A DNA stretch of 64,000 nt, taken from NCBI GenBank assembly GCA_963795085.1, contig CAWCFX010000001.1:1248001-1312000 (forward strand), read 5' to 3'. The notes below the pieces were generated by a model that was not told the DNA's origin, made no database searches, and saw only the letters and a program-made list of their open reading frames with translations. This document shows, in pieces, positions 20,246 to 26,690 of this stretch (position 1 is the stretch's first letter; each line of letters begins with the position of its first letter). Origin of the DNA: an uncultured Gemmatimonadales bacterium (GTDB taxonomy: Bacteria > Gemmatimonadota > Gemmatimonadetes > Gemmatimonadales > GWC2-71-9). A program made the position numbers and the translations under genes.

Positions 20246-21262
20246 TCACCGTCGGGATGCTGGCCGGCCGTGATCCCGGGCGATCTCCCGATCGGTCAGG
20301 CGGAGAAACCGGGCGGCGTTGTTGTAAAAAATGTCCCGCTTCTGGTCTTCGCTCAGGAAGGGGGCCTCCTCGATGGTTTCGATGGCCACCCGGATCGCCT
20401 GCGGCCAGATCATCTGGTCGGACCCCCACATGATCCGTTTTGCGAAGCCGGCATTGATCAGGCGCTGCAACTGGCTGTAGAAATGGGCCCGGGGAAATCC
20501 CCAGTTGTTCTGCGCGATATCCACGTACACCTGGGGATGCGAGTAGAGCACGGCGATCATCTCATCCACCAGCGGCGAGCCGTAGTGCATGACATAGACG
20601 CGGAGCCGGGGATGGCGGACCAGGACTTCCTCCAGCTGGAACGGGCTGCCCAGCCGGGCCCGATACGGGGATCCGCCCAGAGTATGGGGCCCGCCGGGCG
20701 GGCCCTCGCCCAGGTGAACGCCGACCGGGATATCCAATTCTTCGGCCAGGGCGAAATAGGGGTCGAACATCAGGTCGTCGAGCAGGACCCCGTCGTACTG
20801 GGGCGAGATCTCGGCGAAGACCTGGAACCGGCCCGCCTGGTAGAGCCGGCGGTACTCGTCCGGCGCGCGCTCCCGGGCCACGTTGAAAAACAGGGCGGGA
20901 ATGATCCGTTCGGGGGACGCCGCCTGCCAGGCGCTGATCTGCTCCAGCCGGCCGGTCGTCACCGCGCGGATGTTATACCGCTCCAGCAGGGCCAGCGTTT
21001 CGCTCCGTACCGCGGCGTCGCTGGCGGCCGGCTGCAGGGGAGTGGCGCAGGAGGTAAGTGTGCTGGCCAGCGTGATCGGCTTCCGGGGATCCACCGGGGG
21101 AAACTCGATAGGCTGGTCGCTGGTGCACACGGCGAGACCTCCGCCGTAGTCGGCCAGGGTATGAGCGTGCAGGTGCACGTCAATAATGGGACGCCCGGGA
21201 CCCTGGGCCGGCAGGGCCCGGGGCAGCAGAACGAACAGGAGGGCAAGGGACAGGGGCCGCAT
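20246..21262 (-). CDS. Secreted amidohydrolase-family (Amidohydro_2) metal-dependent hydrolase
   Basis: Signal peptide, 'IIDVHLH', 'PVGVH', 'VMHYG' and 'IMWGSD'. True start is ATG 21262; the ORF-track upstream extension is spurious. Confidence 0.8.
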   Translation of the reverse strand: MRPLSLALLFVLLPRALPAQGPGRPIIDVHLHAHTLADYGGGLAVCTSDQPIEFPPVDPRKPITLASTLTSCATPLQPAASDAAVRSETLALLERYNIRAVTTGRLEQISAWQAASPERIIPALFFNVARERAPDEYRRLYQAGRFQVFAEISPQYDGVLLDDLMFDPYFALAEELDIPVGVHLGEGPPGGPHTLGGSPYRARLGSPFQLEEVLVRHPRLRVYVMHYGSPLVDEMIAVLYSHPQVYVDIAQNNWGFPRAHFYSQLQRLINAGFAKRIMWGSDQMIWPQAIRVAIETIEEAPFLSEDQKRDIFYNNAARFLRLTDREIARDHGRPASRR

Positions 21263-21396
21263 GAGGCTCCGAATGTCAAAGTTTGAAATGGCCGACGGGC
21301 GGCGAAATCTGGCCCGCGGCGGAGGTGCCATGCGACGCGGACGGGACGGTTCCGGGACCAGGCGCGTGGCGCCTGGGTCCGCCCCGTCTCCCCCGG

Positions 21397-22086
21397 TCAA
21401 GACCGCCGGAGTATCCAGAACTCCCCGGTCAATCCCACCTCGGCGAGCAATGCTTCGGTTTCTTCGACAGTGTGGCGGCGCCATTCGGGCTTGACCTTGT
21501 CCCGGTACCAGCCCCGGGCCAGCCGCCACCCCTGCTCGGGAGTGAGCAATGCGCCCCGCGAGAGGTCGCGGGCCTGGCACCAGCGGTCCACGTGCTCTTC
21601 CGACCGGAAGAGAAGCATGGTGCTTCAGGCGAACCCGATGTTCTCCCACCACTGCCGGGCCGGGACCGCGAAGTGAATGATCCCCTCGGCGTGCGCCAGT
21701 TCGCCGCCGGCGACGGCGATCCGGAGCGGGGCTCCGCAGTCGCCGCAGGGCGCCTCGATTTCCGCGTCCCGCCCCAGCGCCGCCGCGATCCCGAGGGCAT
21801 CCCAGATGCAGATGCCCCAATAGGTGATTCCCGCCGACCGGACCCGGAACCCCGAGGGAACGGCGCAGAACGGGTTGGCGGCCCAGATACCGCCGCCGTT
21901 GGGCGCCTGGATCAGCACCTTGCCCGCGGCGAGGTGCGCGATCGCCTGCCGCACCGATTCCTCCGGGTGGCCGAGTGCCGTGGCAATAGCGGCCGCCTGG
22001 GGTACCTGTCCCGTGGTGGCCGCGTGCTGAAAGAGATAGACACGGACCCCATCCGACATCGCTTCCGCCGCCGCATCGCCCGTCAT
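21397..22086 (-). CDS. MerB-like organometallic lyase; probable selenoprotein (in-frame TGA at 21625-21627 read as Sec)
   Basis: N-terminal winged-helix-like part, then 'ANPFCAVP', 'YWGICIWDALG', 'PCGDCG' and 'WWENIGFA*STMLLFRSEEH'. The two track ORFs (21625..22197 and 21397..21618) are in the same frame, giving 229 aa. The start overlaps the upstream stop (ATGA). Confidence 0.8.
21588..21624 (-). promoter_or_regulatory. Bacterial SECIS-like hairpin immediately 3' of the in-frame UGA
   Basis: mRNA reads UGA-AGCACCAUGCUU-CUCUUCC-GGUC-GGAAGAG-CACGUGG. This forms a perfect 7-bp upper stem with a GGUC loop starting after 19 nt, extendable by a bulged lower stem. Confidence 0.7.
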
Positions 22087-23573
22087 GCGATCTGCTCCGG
22101 TGAAGGGTTTTCGATGGCCCGGGCCAGGCCCCGCAACATGCCGCCGAACACCAGGTGGTGCAGAGGATAGAGCGCATACCAGTAGGCCCGCCCCCACAGT
22201 CCCACCGGGTCAAAGATGGCGGTCTGCCGGATGGTGGTCCCCGTCCCGTCCGGCGTCAACTCGAACTCCAGCCACGCCCGCCCCGGCAACTTCATCTCGG
22301 CCGCCAGCCGCAGCAGGCGGTCCGGTTCGATCGCCTCGACCCGCCAGAAATCCAGGGTGTCGCCCACGCGCAGGGTGGTGGGGGAGCGGCGGCCCCGTCG
22401 CAAGCCCGCACCGCCGGCCAGCAGGTCCAGGAACCCCCGCAGGCGCCACAGCCAGTTCCAGGCGTACCACCCGGTGGCGCCGCCGATCTGGCGGACCGGC
22501 GCGAACGCGCGGCCGGGAGGCGCGGTGACACGCACCGAACGGGAATCTACCAGCCGGGAACCGAAAGGAACGCCCCCCCACGTAGGTGGCTCCCCCGCCG
22601 AAGAGAGTGCATCGGACCAGCGCGTGGCCGCGATCTCCCGGTCCTCCCGGGCCAATGCGCGTTCGACCGCCTGGTCCACGCCCATCGGCACGATCGCCGG
22701 AAAGGTCTGCCGCGCGCCGGGATCACGGACGATGGTAGGGTGGATGATGCTCTCGATGAGCTTCCTGCCGATTCGGGCGTACACCGGCGTCACCAGCCCC
22801 AGCCACAGGCTGGAAAGAAACGGTGTCAGCACCGGCACCGGGATCATGCGGAGCCGCATCCCCCGGCGGGCCGCATACCGCCGCATGATCTCGGCGTAAG
22901 AAACCTGGTCCGCCCCGCCGATCTCGAAGACCCGGTACTGGCTGACCGGCAGCTCGAGCGCCGCGACCAGGTAGGAAAGGAGATCGTCGATCGCGATGGG
23001 CTGGGCCGACACATTGACCCAGCGCGGCGTGACCATGAGCGGCAGCCGCTCCACCAGCGCACGAATCATCTCGAAGGAAAGGCTGCCGGATCCGATCACG
23101 ATCGACGCGCGGAACTCGAGGACCGGTACCCCGGATTCCCCGAGGATCCGCCCGACCTCCTGCCGGCTGCGAAGATGAGGGGAGAGATCCTCGCCGGCCT
23201 GGCCGAGCCCGCCGAGGTAAATAATCCCGCGAACCCCGGCGGCACGGGCCGCCTGGCCGAAGTGAAGGGCCGCCGCCCGGTCGGCGGTCTCGAAGGATCC
23301 GGCCGACCCCATGGAATGGACGAGGTAGTACGCGATGTCCACGTCCTCGAAGGCGGGGGGCAGCGTGGCGGGGCTCAGTACGTCGCCGGCCACCGTCTCG
23401 GTTGCTGCACCGGTCCGGCCGCGGAGCGTGGCCGGGCGGCGGCTCAGGCAGCGGATGCGGTGGCCGGCGTGCTCCAGGAGAGGAAGGAGCCGTCCGCCGA
23501 CGTAACCGGTGGCGCCGGTGAGCAGGATCCGACGGGGCGGGGAGCCGGTCACCCGGGCGGCAGATTCAGCCAT
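22083..23573 (-). CDS. Atypical SDR/NAD(P)-binding protein with C-terminal DUF2867 (YbjT-like)
   Basis: 'ILLTGATGYVG', 'AYYLVHSM', 'HLRSRQEVG' and C-terminal 'DFWRVE...AEMKLPGRAWLEF'. Confidence 0.85.
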   Translation of the reverse strand: MAESAARVTGSPPRRILLTGATGYVGGRLLPLLEHAGHRIRCLSRRPATLRGRTGAATETVAGDVLSPATLPPAFEDVDIAYYLVHSMGSAGSFETADRAAALHFGQAARAAGVRGIIYLGGLGQAGEDLSPHLRSRQEVGRILGESGVPVLEFRASIVIGSGSLSFEMIRALVERLPLMVTPRWVNVSAQPIAIDDLLSYLVAALELPVSQYRVFEIGGADQVSYAEIMRRYAARRGMRLRMIPVPVLTPFLSSLWLGLVTPVYARIGRKLIESIIHPTIVRDPGARQTFPAIVPMGVDQAVERALAREDREIAATRWSDALSSAGEPPTWGGVPFGSRLVDSRSVRVTAPPGRAFAPVRQIGGATGWYAWNWLWRLRGFLDLLAGGAGLRRGRRSPTTLRVGDTLDFWRVEAIEPDRLLRLAAEMKLPGRAWLEFELTPDGTGTTIRQTAIFDPVGLWGRAYWYALYPLHHLVFGGMLRGLARAIENPSPEQIA

Positions 23574-23920
23574 TGCTCGGCTTCTTCCATGGTCCGGAAA
23601 ACGCCAATCTCGGTGCCTTCGAATTCAAAAAATGCCTGGAGCATCCGGCTCAGCCCGAAATGGGCATCTTCCTCGGCGATGAAGGCGCGCTTGACGCCCG
23701 GGGCAAACACCGATGTCCGGGCCAGGCCGCGGAGGGCGGCGGCCGAAAGGTCCATGGTGTCCACATTGCGGAGATCGCAGGTTTGCCGGTAGGTCGGCCG
23801 GAAGGCAGGGTCGTTGGCCAGCTCGCGGTAGTGGACGATGCTTTCTTCTTCGGTCAGCAGGCCCCAGGCCCGACTTCGCACCAGTTCGAGGGCCGGGTCG
23901 ATCTCATAACTCGAAGGCAT
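23549..23920 (-). CDS. Small hypothetical protein (STAS/SEC14-like alpha/beta pattern)
   Basis: 123 aa with 'CDLR', 'KRAFIA..D..FGLSRM' and 'VFRTMEEAEQWL'. RBS GGGAG. Confidence 0.6.
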   Translation of the reverse strand: MPSSYEIDPALELVRSRAWGLLTEEESIVHYRELANDPAFRPTYRQTCDLRNVDTMDLSAAALRGLARTSVFAPGVKRAFIAEEDAHFGLSRMLQAFFEFEGTEIGVFRTMEEAEQWLNLPPG

Positions 23921-23976
23921 GGGGCTCCCTGGTTGCTGAAAACGGTAGTGCCCCGGGACCGCCTTGTCGAGGAGGA

Positions 23977-25971
23977 TCACAGGTAGTAATCGAAATCCCT
24001 TTCGCTCTTGACCTGGCGCCGGATCCGGAACAGGTGAGCCGGCAGCACCGCCGGGTCCAGCTGCACGTAGTTGGCGGGTCCGGTCCAGAGGTAGCGGCTG
24101 CCGCCCAGTTCGTCATGCACCTGGAAGGCCTGGTCCGGTTCCAGTCCCAGCGCGGCCAGGTCGAGATGTACCCACCCCGACTGGGCATGGTGCAGGTCCA
24201 GGTTCGCGACGACGAGCACGGCGTTGGCCAGGTCGTCGCTGGTCTTGCTGTAACAGAGGAGCAGGGGGTTGTCCACGATGTGAAACTTGAGGCCGCTGTT
24301 GGTCTGCAGGGCGGGATTCTCCCGGCGGGCGCGGTTGAGCCGGGTGATGAGCGGCTTGAGGCTGTGAGCGGCGCCGAGATCCCACTCGCGCAACTGGTAC
24401 TTCTCGGAATCGAGGTATTCCTCGCTGCCCGGGCTACGCGGCTGGTGCTCGCCCAGTTCGAAGGCGGGCCCGTAGATGCCGTAGCTGGCTCCCAGGGTGG
24501 CGGCCAGGATGACTCGCAACTGAAAGGCGGGACGCCCGCCGATCTGGAGATACTCGGTCAGGATATCCGGCGTGTTTGGCCACAGGTTGGGGCGGAAGAA
24601 CTCCCGGACATCGGCGGCGCTCAGTTCGGTGAAGTAGTCCGCCAGTTCCTGGCGGGTGTTCCGCCAGGAGAAGTAGGTATAGCTCTGGGAAAACCCCAGC
24701 TTGGCCAGGCGGTACATTACCTTGGGCCGGGTAAAGGCTTCGGCCAGAAAGATGGTGTCGGGATACTCCGCCTGCACTTCCGCGATCATCCACTCCCAGA
24801 ACGCAAAGGCCTTGGTGTGGGGATTGTCGACCCGGAAAATCCGGACCCCGCGTCTGGCCCAGAAAACCACGACCTCCTTGAGGCCTTCCCAGAGTGCTTC
24901 CCAGTCCTCGCTCTCAAAATCGATCGGATAGATGTCCTGGTATTTCTTGGGGGGGTTCTCGGCGTACTGGATGGTGCCATCGGGGCGGTGCCGGAACCAG
25001 GCGGGATGTTCGGTGACCCAGGGGTGGTCGGGCGAGCACTGGTAGGCGATGTCGAGGGCGATCTCGATGCCCCGGGCCTGGGCGGCGCTCACCAGCCGGT
25101 CAAAGTCGGTCAGGGTGCCCAGGTCGGGATGGATCGCGGTATGTCCCCCTTCCGGGCCGCCGATGGCCCACGGGCTGCCGACATCCGGAGGGCCCGCCGT
25201 GAGACTGTTGTTGGGGCCCTTGCGAAAGGCGCGGCCGACCGGGTGGATAGGCGGCAGGTAGAGGACGTCGAAACCCATCCCCGCGATGTAGGCCAGCCGT
25301 CGCTCCACGTCGGCGAAGGTCCCGTGCCGGCCCGGCGTCTCCGCGGCCGAGCGGGGGAACAACTCGTACCAGGTGCTGTAGCGGGCACGGGGCCGCTCTG
25401 CCCGGACCTTCAACTCCCGGTCATACCGGGTGGCCAGGCCCCGGTCGGGCCACCCGCAGGCGGTGGCTTCCAGTACCGGGTCCAGCGCCAGCGCGGTGCG
25501 GGCTTCGAGATCCCCCCTGGTGCGCAGGGTAGCGGCCCAGCCGGTCAGGCGGGTGGCATCCCGTTTCTGGGCGCGGCCGGCGGCGGCCTCCAGCAGACGA
25601 GCGCCGATCTCGAACTCCGGCTCCAGGTCCTGATCCGGGGCCTTCACCCGCCGGGCCATGTCGCGGACCCACGTCAGGAAACGATCGGTCCACCCTTCGA
25701 CGGTGAAGAGATACTCGCCCAGGTCCTGGACCGGGAAGCTGGCGGTCCATCGGTCATTCCCGAGCGATTGCATGGGAAGCTCGGTCCAGGTCTTTCCGCC
25801 GGGGCTCCGGACTCGAAGGACGCAAGCCACCGCATCGTGGCCGTCGCCGAAGACGTCGGCCTCGACCTGGACCGATTCGCCGACGACCCGTTTGACCGGG
25901 AACCTGCCGTCGTCCACGCGGGGCTGGACGTTCTCGATAACGACCCGGTGCCGGCCGTCCGGCTGCGCCAT
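23977..25971 (-). CDS. glgE: Alpha-1,4-glucan:maltose-1-phosphate maltosyltransferase
   Basis: 'WYELFPRS', 'LYLPPIHP', 'RKGPNN', 'YAENPPKKYQDIYP', 'FRVDNPHTK', 'LAEAFT' and 'NTPDIL'. Start ATG 25971. Confidence 0.95.
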   Translation of the reverse strand: MAQPDGRHRVVIENVQPRVDDGRFPVKRVVGESVQVEADVFGDGHDAVACVLRVRSPGGKTWTELPMQSLGNDRWTASFPVQDLGEYLFTVEGWTDRFLTWVRDMARRVKAPDQDLEPEFEIGARLLEAAAGRAQKRDATRLTGWAATLRTRGDLEARTALALDPVLEATACGWPDRGLATRYDRELKVRAERPRARYSTWYELFPRSAAETPGRHGTFADVERRLAYIAGMGFDVLYLPPIHPVGRAFRKGPNNSLTAGPPDVGSPWAIGGPEGGHTAIHPDLGTLTDFDRLVSAAQARGIEIALDIAYQCSPDHPWVTEHPAWFRHRPDGTIQYAENPPKKYQDIYPIDFESEDWEALWEGLKEVVVFWARRGVRIFRVDNPHTKAFAFWEWMIAEVQAEYPDTIFLAEAFTRPKVMYRLAKLGFSQSYTYFSWRNTRQELADYFTELSAADVREFFRPNLWPNTPDILTEYLQIGGRPAFQLRVILAATLGASYGIYGPAFELGEHQPRSPGSEEYLDSEKYQLREWDLGAAHSLKPLITRLNRARRENPALQTNSGLKFHIVDNPLLLCYSKTSDDLANAVLVVANLDLHHAQSGWVHLDLAALGLEPDQAFQVHDELGGSRYLWTGPANYVQLDPAVLPAHLFRIRRQVKSERDFDYYL

Positions 25972-25988
25972 GGTCTTCCTCCCTTCGC

Positions 25989-26690
25989 TCACAGGTGTTC
26001 GATGGTCGGTTCGGGCTGTTCGCCCTGGCGTTCCGCCTGCTTCTCCCAGGTGCGGCTGACCACTTCCTTGGAGCCCAGCCCTACCGCCAGCGCCAGCGCC
26101 AGGACGATCCCGCCGAACAGGGCGCCGAAGGCCAGCAGCAGGATGGTGCCGCCGATGCTCAGGTGGTCGAGCGCCATGGCGACCGTGAGGAGCAGGACCA
26201 GCCACTTGACGCCGAGGCTCATGAGCCGGGCCGACTGCAACTGCATGTTGACCGCGCTGATGAGCACCCCGCGCGACAGGAACCGGGCCAGCACCGTCCC
26301 CATGATGAGGAGGATGATGGCCACAAAGACGTTGGGGAGATAGGTCCCCAGCCGTCCCAGCAGGGTCACCATGAGCGTGGCATCGAGCGCGGCGAGCCCC
26401 ACCATGGCGCCGAGCAGCACGATGACCCAGTACACCAGCCGGCCGACCAGCAGGGTGGGGCTGTTGCGGGGAGACCATTCGACCAGCGCCGCGGCGCCCC
26501 AGCGCTCCAGCTGGTAATCGAACCGAACCGCGCTGAGCAGCCGGACCAGGATCCAGCGGATGAGCGCACCCACCAGCATGGCCGCCAGCACCGACAGCAG
26601 CAGCGCGACCAGGCCGGGCAGCAGGCTGGCCAGGGTCGTCAAAACCCGGCTCAGGGAGTCCCGCAAGGCGTCGTCAATCTGGTTCCACAT
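25989..26690 (-). CDS. Membrane protein with mechanosensitive-channel-type TM-helix repeats (CmpX-like)
   Basis: 'LPGLVALL', 'YLPNVFVAIILL' and 'LALALAVGLG'. No MscS soluble domain is present. Confidence 0.65.
   Translation of the reverse strand: MWNQIDDALRDSLSRVLTTLASLLPGLVALLLSVLAAMLVGALIRWILVRLLSAVRFDYQLERWGAAALVEWSPRNSPTLLVGRLVYWVIVLLGAMVGLAALDATLMVTLLGRLGTYLPNVFVAIILLIMGTVLARFLSRGVLISAVNMQLQSARLMSLGVKWLVLLLTVAMALDHLSIGGTILLLAFGALFGGIVLALALAVGLGSKEVVSRTWEKQAERQGEQPEPTIEHL

Follow-up and report, generated by a model that had tools for sequence, protein, structure and literature searches.

A probable MerB-like selenoprotein, distinct from SaoL, encoded by a gene annotated as two in an uncultured Gemmatimonadales bacterium

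The locus and its in-frame TGA

We analyzed a 64,000-nucleotide stretch of DNA (the window, numbered from its first letter) from an uncultured Gemmatimonadales bacterium (assembly GCA_963795085.1, contig CAWCFX010000001.1, positions 1,248,001 to 1,312,000 of the forward strand). On its minus strand lies a gene whose product resembles the organomercurial lyase MerB and whose reading frame is crossed by a single TGA. An earlier reading of the window from its letters alone (the sequence-only reading) had proposed that this codon encodes selenocysteine (Sec), directed by a selenocysteine insertion sequence (SECIS) hairpin. The features of the gene are the following.

21397..22086, minus strand: putative MerB-like selenoprotein gene, 229 codons plus stop; ATG at 22086-22084, terminal TGA at 21399-21397
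21808..21810, minus strand: TGC codon of Cys93, equivalent to MerB Cys96 in the alignment to 3f2g; invariant in 44/44 sequences of alignment A3
21799..21801, minus strand: GAT codon of Asp96, equivalent to MerB Asp99 (the proton donor) in the same alignment; invariant in 44/44 sequences of A3
21625..21627, minus strand: in-frame UGA, the TGA column, putatively read as Sec; residue 154, equivalent to MerB Cys159 in the phmmer alignment
21595..21612, minus strand: candidate SECIS hairpin; 5' arm CUCUUCC at 21612-21606, loop GGUC at 21605-21602, 3' arm GGAAGAG at 21601-21595

The open reading frame (ORF) track reports two pieces here, 21625-22197 and 21397-21618. Translation of 22086-21397 gives one frame with one internal TGA, in the context WWENIGFA-U-STMLLFRSEE. 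The two halves are in frame and joined by this codon, as the sequence-only reading had described, and all the sequence features it listed are present. The MerB-like gene is one intact gene, not two. The false second gene begins, for ORF callers, at a Met codon (21619-21621, minus strand) two codons past the UGA. This position is conserved, with Met in 68 of 80 related loci and Ile in most of the others. Two further ORFs overlap the gene in alternative frames, 20246-22213 (minus strand, 655 aa) and 21283-22170 (plus strand, 295 aa); they represent the usual artefact of high-GC DNA, and the antisense frame clusters among the related loci solely through conservation of the sense gene. The site was also recovered from a soil-metagenome run, in which the one contig spanning the TGA covers 21427-21640 and does not differ from the window; the contig has low depth and the run is possibly the source sample, so that it is not independent support.

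Conservation of the TGA, the hairpin and the Sec machinery

Among species-representative genomes, 333 stretches encode a relative of the protein, and the codon was read in the best 80 of them. All 80 have TGA at the column. These loci come from about 12 phyla: by record title, Gemmatimonadota (28), Acidobacteriota (20), Chloroflexota (10), Actinomycetota (8), Bacteroidota (2), Thermomicrobiota (2) and one each of Armatimonadota, Myxococcota, Pseudomonadota, Chlamydiota, Verrucomicrobiota and Methylomirabilota, with four carrying no phylum. A six-frame search of 61 genomes from the window's GTDB order gave matches in 10, the window's own genome included. Five full-length copies at 35-42% identity and a partial one at 45% all carry TGA at the column (6/6), in the motif F-[T/A]-U-[S/M]-T-M; the remaining three matches comprise one fragment of 25 residues, where a contig ends, and two weak ones (23-25% identity) without stops. 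In total, TGA was found at the DNA level in 87 of 87 copies (the 80 loci plus seven including the window), and TAA or TAG never. One Acidobacteriota-labelled copy (L064:6001-6661) loses similarity over its last ~40 residues and contains more TGA codons, which looks like a frameshift at its 3' end.

The same column marks the end of most database proteins. Of the 120 best protein-database hits, 117 stop exactly before it (one of them the window's own fragment), two have Cys (GFT-C-ST; P0004 and P0005) and one has Ser. The database forms are almost everywhere 150-155 residues long, and the named entries are truncated proteins called 'organomercurial lyase' or 'hypothetical protein'. When 1.84 billion cluster representatives were searched with a profile, 4460 relatives had E <=1e-3, and 340 of them E <=1e-30. 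Among the best 150 of the 4460, the column holds Cys in 66 and another residue in seven (two Trp, two Ala, one Tyr, one His and one Leu), 70 end exactly before it, six end no more than one residue away from it, and one is unaligned there; protein truncation serves here as a proxy for TGA, and confirmation at the DNA level covers the 87 copies. The alternation of Cys and TGA that the sequence-only reading had suggested looking for is therefore present, both in P0004 and P0005 and in the 66 of 150 representatives. In a few full-length relatives (P0002, P0126 and P0133) the column holds Ser or Trp; these residues may be single-base descendants of TGA (TCA, TGG) or errors, and the proteins may be inactive or altered forms. 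Another relative (P0103) has an N-terminal GNAT acetyltransferase domain (PF13302/PF00583) fused to the MerB-like part, which again ends at the Sec column.

The hairpin downstream of the UGA is a perfect 7-bp stem that begins 12 nt past the codon, with its loop 19 nt past it, inside the codons L-F-R-S-E-E. These positions and its CUCUUCC-GGUC-GGAAGAG sequence are those given by the sequence-only reading. That reading had also compared it with the SECIS of E. coli fdhF, which carries a GGUC-containing loop at a very similar distance; the window hairpin differs from that element and from the bacterial SECIS consensus in having neither a bulged U nor a well-supported lower stem. A lower helix (columns 14-18 with 42-46) is not claimed, since 75% of its cells pair and one of its pairs is open in 41 of 79 sequences. 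As summarized in a review, the bacterial SECIS model has a loop of 3-9 nt, a stem of 4-16 bp, G in the first two loop positions, 16-37 nt between UGA and loop, and a folding energy no higher than -7.5 kcal/mol (PMC13188914). The window hairpin satisfies this model with a 4-nt loop, 7 bp, a G-G start, 19 nt and -9.1 kcal/mol, and, like the consensus described there, it is a stem-loop inside the gene, placed immediately 3' of the UGA, whose loop starts with G-G-U; both its 7-bp upper stem and its 19-nt spacing are in range. Folded alone, the hairpin has a z-score of -2.55. Perfect 7-bp hairpins with loops of 3-6 nt occur 44 times in the 64-kb window and about 36 times in shuffles of it. Taken alone, the hairpin is modest evidence.

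Much stronger evidence comes from comparison among relatives. Alignment A2 holds 81 sequences, ungapped over 60 nt around the UGA, and pairs were counted over its 79 distinct sequences. Standard pairs fill 92.4% of the stem cells, compared with 43-62% after a shift of the 3' partners by 1-3 columns. Compensatory changes occur in four of the seven pairs, and 15 cells have changed on both sides; none of 500 shuffles matched the observed pairing, none the number of double-change cells and none the covariation score. The outer pair appears as C-G (55), U-A (5), U-G (5), A-U (4) and G-C (1), and the fourth pair as U-A (64), U-G (12) and C-G (3). Some of the changes that keep a pair alter the protein, from L to I, V or F, from E to D, and from R to W in one relative (L021). 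The conservation and covariation that the sequence-only reading had left to be checked are thus both found. A subset of close relatives has a 6-bp stem with CGGGAC, CGGGAU or CGUGCA as the loop, keeping a G near the loop start.

Synonymous sites in the hairpin are frozen. The Arg codon on the loop side is CGG in 66 sequences, CGT in 11 and CGC in none (n=77), whereas CGC makes up 44% elsewhere in the same genes. The Ser codon in the stem is TCG in 53 of 53 (34% elsewhere in the same genes) and the Glu codon GAA in 65 of 80 (26% elsewhere). Just 5' of the stem, Leu (CTC 26, CTG 25, CTT 17) and Thr (ACC 37, ACG 35) vary freely. The freezing is confined to stem and loop. Together, the conservation, covariation and frozen synonymous sites of the hairpin are far beyond chance.

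The genome of the window (3.89 Mb, 6 contigs, 93% complete) encodes selA, selB, selC and selD, for which the sequence-only reading had advised a search. The tRNA-Sec scores 68.4 bits (cut-off 47) and has the anticodon UCA, SelA scores 431.6 bits, and SelB is present with its winged-helix domain. The SelD of this genome (G000:C4:64282-65202, L011) is itself a selenoprotein, with a Sec codon in GAG-U-ACK followed ~30 nt on by the hairpin GCGCAG-GUC-CUGCGC, which has a GUC loop. With tRNA-Sec, SelA, SelB and a Sec-containing SelD all present, the organism decodes UGA as Sec, and does so with a similar loop sequence. SelA is found in 54 of the 61 related genomes and is therefore not discriminating; all seven genomes with the TGA-containing gene have it.

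We propose that the UGA at residue 154 is decoded as Sec, the SECIS hairpin recruiting SelB and Sec-tRNA(Sec), and give this interpretation a probability of about 0.88. Several observations weigh against it. The z-score for folding of the hairpin region is just -2.09, the possible lower helix is weak, and an Rfam scan of 21300-22200 at E <=10 returned no matching model, only three hits at chance level. In addition, the Met codon two codons past the UGA makes a restart of translation formally possible. In such a split gene, a 153-aa product would end at the TGA and an ATG six bases on would give a 73-aa piece, the two assembling without the Cys159 residue. The exact match to the two pieces given by ORF callers, the ATG in 68 of 80 loci and the 150-155 aa form seen almost everywhere in databases all agree with this arrangement. 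However, the restart codon is ATC, ATT, ATA or AAC, which are no starts, in 12 of 80 loci, and the stop is TGA in all 87 copies and never TAA or TAG. The gap would also fall exactly on a catalytic residue that is Cys in uninterrupted homologues, and a restart does not predict a covarying hairpin with frozen synonymous sites. We regard a split gene as very improbable.

Hardly more credible is the recoding of UGA to a residue other than Sec, either to Cys by a tRNA-Sec-like tRNA or to Trp or another residue by near-cognate read-through. Some bacteria are reported to insert Cys at UGA in a SelB-dependent way with tRNA-Sec-like tRNAs, and Trp occupies the column in two of the 150 representatives. 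The genome, however, has a canonical tRNA-Sec well above its cut-off together with SelA and SelD, which make up the full route to Sec-tRNA. UGA also terminates ordinary genes here, such as the MerB-like gene itself and the adjacent short-chain dehydrogenase/reductase (SDR) gene, and the homologous residue is overwhelmingly Cys rather than Trp. The chance that a Cys-type MerB-like gene was broken by a nonsense mutation or a sequencing artefact is negligible. A single in-frame stop does resemble a fresh pseudogene, and the site was covered again only by one low-depth contig that may come from the source sample. Nevertheless, 86 other independent assemblies have this codon at the corresponding column, with identities as low as 35%, and the frame beyond the TGA is fully conserved, which refutes both the pseudogene and the assembly error.

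The protein and its relation to MerB and SaoL

The Pfam MerB domain (PF03243) matches residues 74-194 over profile positions 2-125 of 126 (E 4.4e-29, 101.5 bits, cut-off 27). The match runs across the TGA, and either half alone covers just its own part of the profile. It is the sole PF03243 gene of the genome. The predicted protein begins with a winged-helix-like part, followed by the MerB core; its C-terminal extension of ~35 residues is conserved in the clade. In phmmer searches against PDB sequences, it aligned with MerB2 (5c17, E 1.5e-9) and with MerB (3f2g and others). In the alignment to 3f2g, Cys93 and Asp96 line up with Cys96 and Asp99, and residue 154 with Cys159; in that to 5c17, residue 154 lines up with the matching Cys. 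The sequence-only reading had placed the UGA at the Cys159 position and C-I-W-D at Cys96/Asp99, and the alignment agrees. Cys93, Asp96 and residue 154 show no variation among the 44 Sec-clade sequences of alignment A3.

The AlphaFold2 model built with a 44-sequence alignment has a pLDDT of 95.5 and a pTM of 0.91. The top 11 Foldseek matches in the PDB, all significant, are MerB or MerB2 (E 4e-11 to 1e-7, TM 0.57-0.73). An extra last residue, 230 (the terminal stop shown as C), is carried by the structure model and by alignments A1 and A3; it leaves the core unaffected. By domain score and predicted fold, the protein is a member of the MerB-fold (PF03243) superfamily. The N-terminal 60 residues weakly resemble winged-helix regulators (Foldseek E 0.2-0.6). 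Canonical MerB shares this N-terminal part, as the fold matches extend across 184-196 columns.

MerB of plasmid R831b (1s6l, 3f0o, 3f2f, 3f2g) and MerB2 (5c17) have the same fold as the window protein at a sequence identity of ~18-20%. The Cys96/Asp99/Cys159 triad of MerB has its counterpart in Cys93/Asp96/Sec154 (Sec as predicted), similar in chemistry though not the same at the third position, and in the alignment MerB2 has Ser where the window protein keeps Asp. The window protein differs from MerB by the predicted Sec in place of Cys159, by the lack of Cys160 and by the absence of merA, merT or other mer context among the genes found. Status as a MerB equivalog (EC 4.99.1.2) was rejected, because the scores are far below the cut-offs of the curated models (NF033555 and NF009710; 24.7 bits, cut-off 200, and 29.2 bits, cut-off 193). 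No model of NCBIfam release 20.0 claims the protein.

The closest described counterpart is SaoL (NCBIfam NF040728), a MerB-like 'selenocysteine-assisted organometallic lyase' (Haft & Gwadz, bioRxiv 10.1101/2022.07.06.499078). According to that preprint, its hosts are exclusively anaerobic Firmicutes, Deltaproteobacteria and Spirochaetes, and its gene lies in a nine-gene SAO neighbourhood (bioRxiv 10.1101/2022.07.06.499078). As far as SaoL is described there, it and the window protein have in common the MerB fold (PF03243), Sec where MerB has Cys159, a Cys and an Asp in the remaining two catalytic places, the usual truncation at the UGA in databases and a suspected non-classical role outside mercury resistance. 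Their differences are extensive. The window protein scores 28.6 bits against NF040728 (cut-off 140), with a match that spans only residues 33-133. The Sec motif given for SaoL is C-U, whereas in the window clade it is [T/A]-U-[S/A]; the residue before U is Ala in the window, Thr or Ala in almost all of the 80 loci and Asn in two. The conserved C-terminal extension of ~35 residues is a further difference from SaoL. In contrast to the reported SAO neighbourhood, no conserved neighbourhood was found here, the Sao families not having been searched by model. The hosts, mainly Gemmatimonadota, Acidobacteriota, Chloroflexota and Actinomycetota of soil-type metagenomes, are also unlike those listed for SaoL. 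We rejected identity with SaoL on the low score, the missing C-U motif and the missing SAO-type locus.

The sequence-only reading had stated that Sec-containing MerB-like families were known and had placed any novelty at the level of the subfamily; SaoL is that family. In the available parts of two reviews (PMC9312934, PMC13188914) it is the only MerB-like selenoprotein, and our literature search found no paper or curated model for the present group. The gene almost certainly encodes a genuine selenoprotein, and it represents a second family of Sec-containing MerB-like proteins beside SaoL, widespread and systematically mis-annotated.

Within the family, the window copy shares 72% identity with a copy labelled Thermoanaerobaculia (L025) but only 42% with that of its genus-mate G004 (L016); the G004 copy is in turn identical to the L075 copy over the 60 nt compared. 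This pattern of identities separates two subclades, with the motifs 'GICIWD...PCGDCG' and 'ANCxWD'. Judged by these sequences, their distribution departs from the species tree, via transfer or differential loss. In a FastTree phylogeny of 144 representatives over 140 columns, Sec forms are scattered among Cys forms, with 13 changes; good support is limited to 10 of 140 branches, and the number and direction of the Sec/Cys switches are not fixed by the tree. Many full-length Cys relatives (P0127, P0131, P0134 and others) have Cys in place of the Asp proton donor. Among the 80 of the best 150 representatives that read past the column, the triad is C-C-C in 31 and C-D-C in 25. The C-C-C relatives suggest a different chemistry in the sister group.

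Possible function, genomic context and significance

In MerB, Cys96 and Cys159 bind mercury and Asp99 protonates the leaving carbon, a mechanism with which the titles of the matched PDB entries and the SaoL preprint agree. We propose that Sec154 stands in for the second metal-binding Cys of MerB and that the roles of Cys96 and Asp99 fall to Cys93 and Asp96. The substrate held between Cys93 and Sec154 would be an organometal, with an organomercurial such as methylmercury the most plausible, and its carbon-metal bond would be cut by protonolysis with Asp96 as the proton donor. A selenolate has a low pKa, being deprotonated at neutral pH, and a high affinity for soft metals, which may favour capture at very low substrate levels. 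The intact gene, the place and conservation of its UGA, the Cys homologues, the covarying SECIS and the Sec machinery are computational results; from them we infer Sec incorporation, lyase activity and the substrate. By analogy with MerB, organomercurial-lyase activity has, in our judgment, a little less than an even chance.

Several points weigh against a lyase. The scores to the two MerB equivalog models lie far under their cut-offs, as given above. In the genome (93% complete), the best MerA match reaches 318 bits against a cut-off of 454 and no MerT was found, merR and merP not having been searched. No conserved neighbour among the 81 loci points to a substrate. The very strong Hg-Se bond could also hinder product release. 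A serious rival for the function, which leaves the selenoprotein interpretation untouched, is a selenoprotein that is not a lyase: Cys93 and Sec154 may form a redox selenenylsulfide, or the protein may bind or sense Hg(II) or another soft metal with high affinity; the N-terminal winged-helix-like part might then have its own role. The low equivalog scores, the lack of a mer operon or a conserved partner, and the weak winged-helix likeness of the N-terminal 60 residues would fit such a protein. So would the frequent replacement of Asp by Cys in the sister Cys forms (C-C-C in 31 of 80), by which the chemistry of the wider clade is not uniform. On the other hand, the Cys, Asp and Sec triad is complete and invariant in 44 of 44 Sec-clade sequences, Asp is the residue specific to protonolysis, and canonical MerB has the same N-terminal part. 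We consider a non-lyase role less likely than not, though it deserves to be taken seriously.

The genes around the MerB-like gene in the window are as follows.

23977-26478: GlgE gene, further upstream
22083..23573, minus strand: SDR-DUF2867 gene, 496 aa, with NAD_binding_10 and DUF2867 domains; its stop codon TGA shares bases with the start codon of the MerB-like gene (ATGA)
20246..21262, minus strand: Amidohydro_2 protein, 338 aa, with a hydrophobic N-terminal leader, 134 nt past the MerB-like stop

The ATGA overlap with a YbjT-like SDR, glgE upstream and a secreted-type amidohydrolase downstream are all present as the sequence-only reading had described them (NAD_binding_10/DUF2867, GlgE and Amidohydro_2), and the SDR-DUF2867 gene is probably co-transcribed with the MerB-like gene in the window. 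That reading had also taken these neighbours as a hint of function. This part does not hold: a homologue of the window neighbours (SDR-DUF2867, GlgE, Amidohydro_2 and DUF2254) lies near the gene in none of the 80 related loci, and the context says nothing on the substrate. The ATGA coupling is a local arrangement, since no window neighbour recurs in the other loci. All ORFs of at least 90 aa lying up to 5.5 kb from the gene were clustered for the window and the 80 loci; no neighbour family occurs in more than seven of the 81 loci, and those that recur are generic ABC ATPases, Ser/Thr kinases and EamA transporters. A tblastn search of the four window neighbours against eight loci of relatives found nothing. 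In three loci (L069, L073 and L082), a tandem pair of genes for EamA-family transporters precedes the MerB-like gene by 1.4-2.5 kb; this pair is the only hint of a conserved context and is limited to one small lineage. Scanned for promoters and terminators, 21100-24100 showed nothing promoter-like and a single terminator-like site, at chance level, inside the SDR gene. The absence of merA and merT noted by the sequence-only reading extends from the window to the genome within the limits of the search given above. The MerB-like selenoprotein gene stands alone, in neither a mer operon nor an SAO locus.

A wider interpretation can be drawn from these observations, which we regard as speculative and on balance doubtful. 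The clade may represent a large, overlooked group of mer-independent organometal (methylmercury) demethylases in Gemmatimonadota, Acidobacteriota, Chloroflexota and Actinomycetota of soils, in which Sec would serve high-affinity scavenging of trace substrate, Sec and Cys would have been exchanged repeatedly, and Sec would have arisen independently of SaoL. Such enzymes would be missed by surveys that look for Cys159 or full-length MerB.

About half of the nearest 50%-identity clusters in the clade are held in databases as fragments of 150-155 residues without a catalytic residue, and recognizing the Sec codon would restore hundreds of genes. The family would add a widespread selenoprotein to those of soil phyla. 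That Sec occupies the same catalytic position here as in SaoL suggests that selenium is repeatedly advantageous in carbon-metal chemistry. If these proteins do demethylate methylmercury, the demethylation potential of soils would be underestimated by merB surveys that require Cys96/Asp99/Cys159 or a mer operon.

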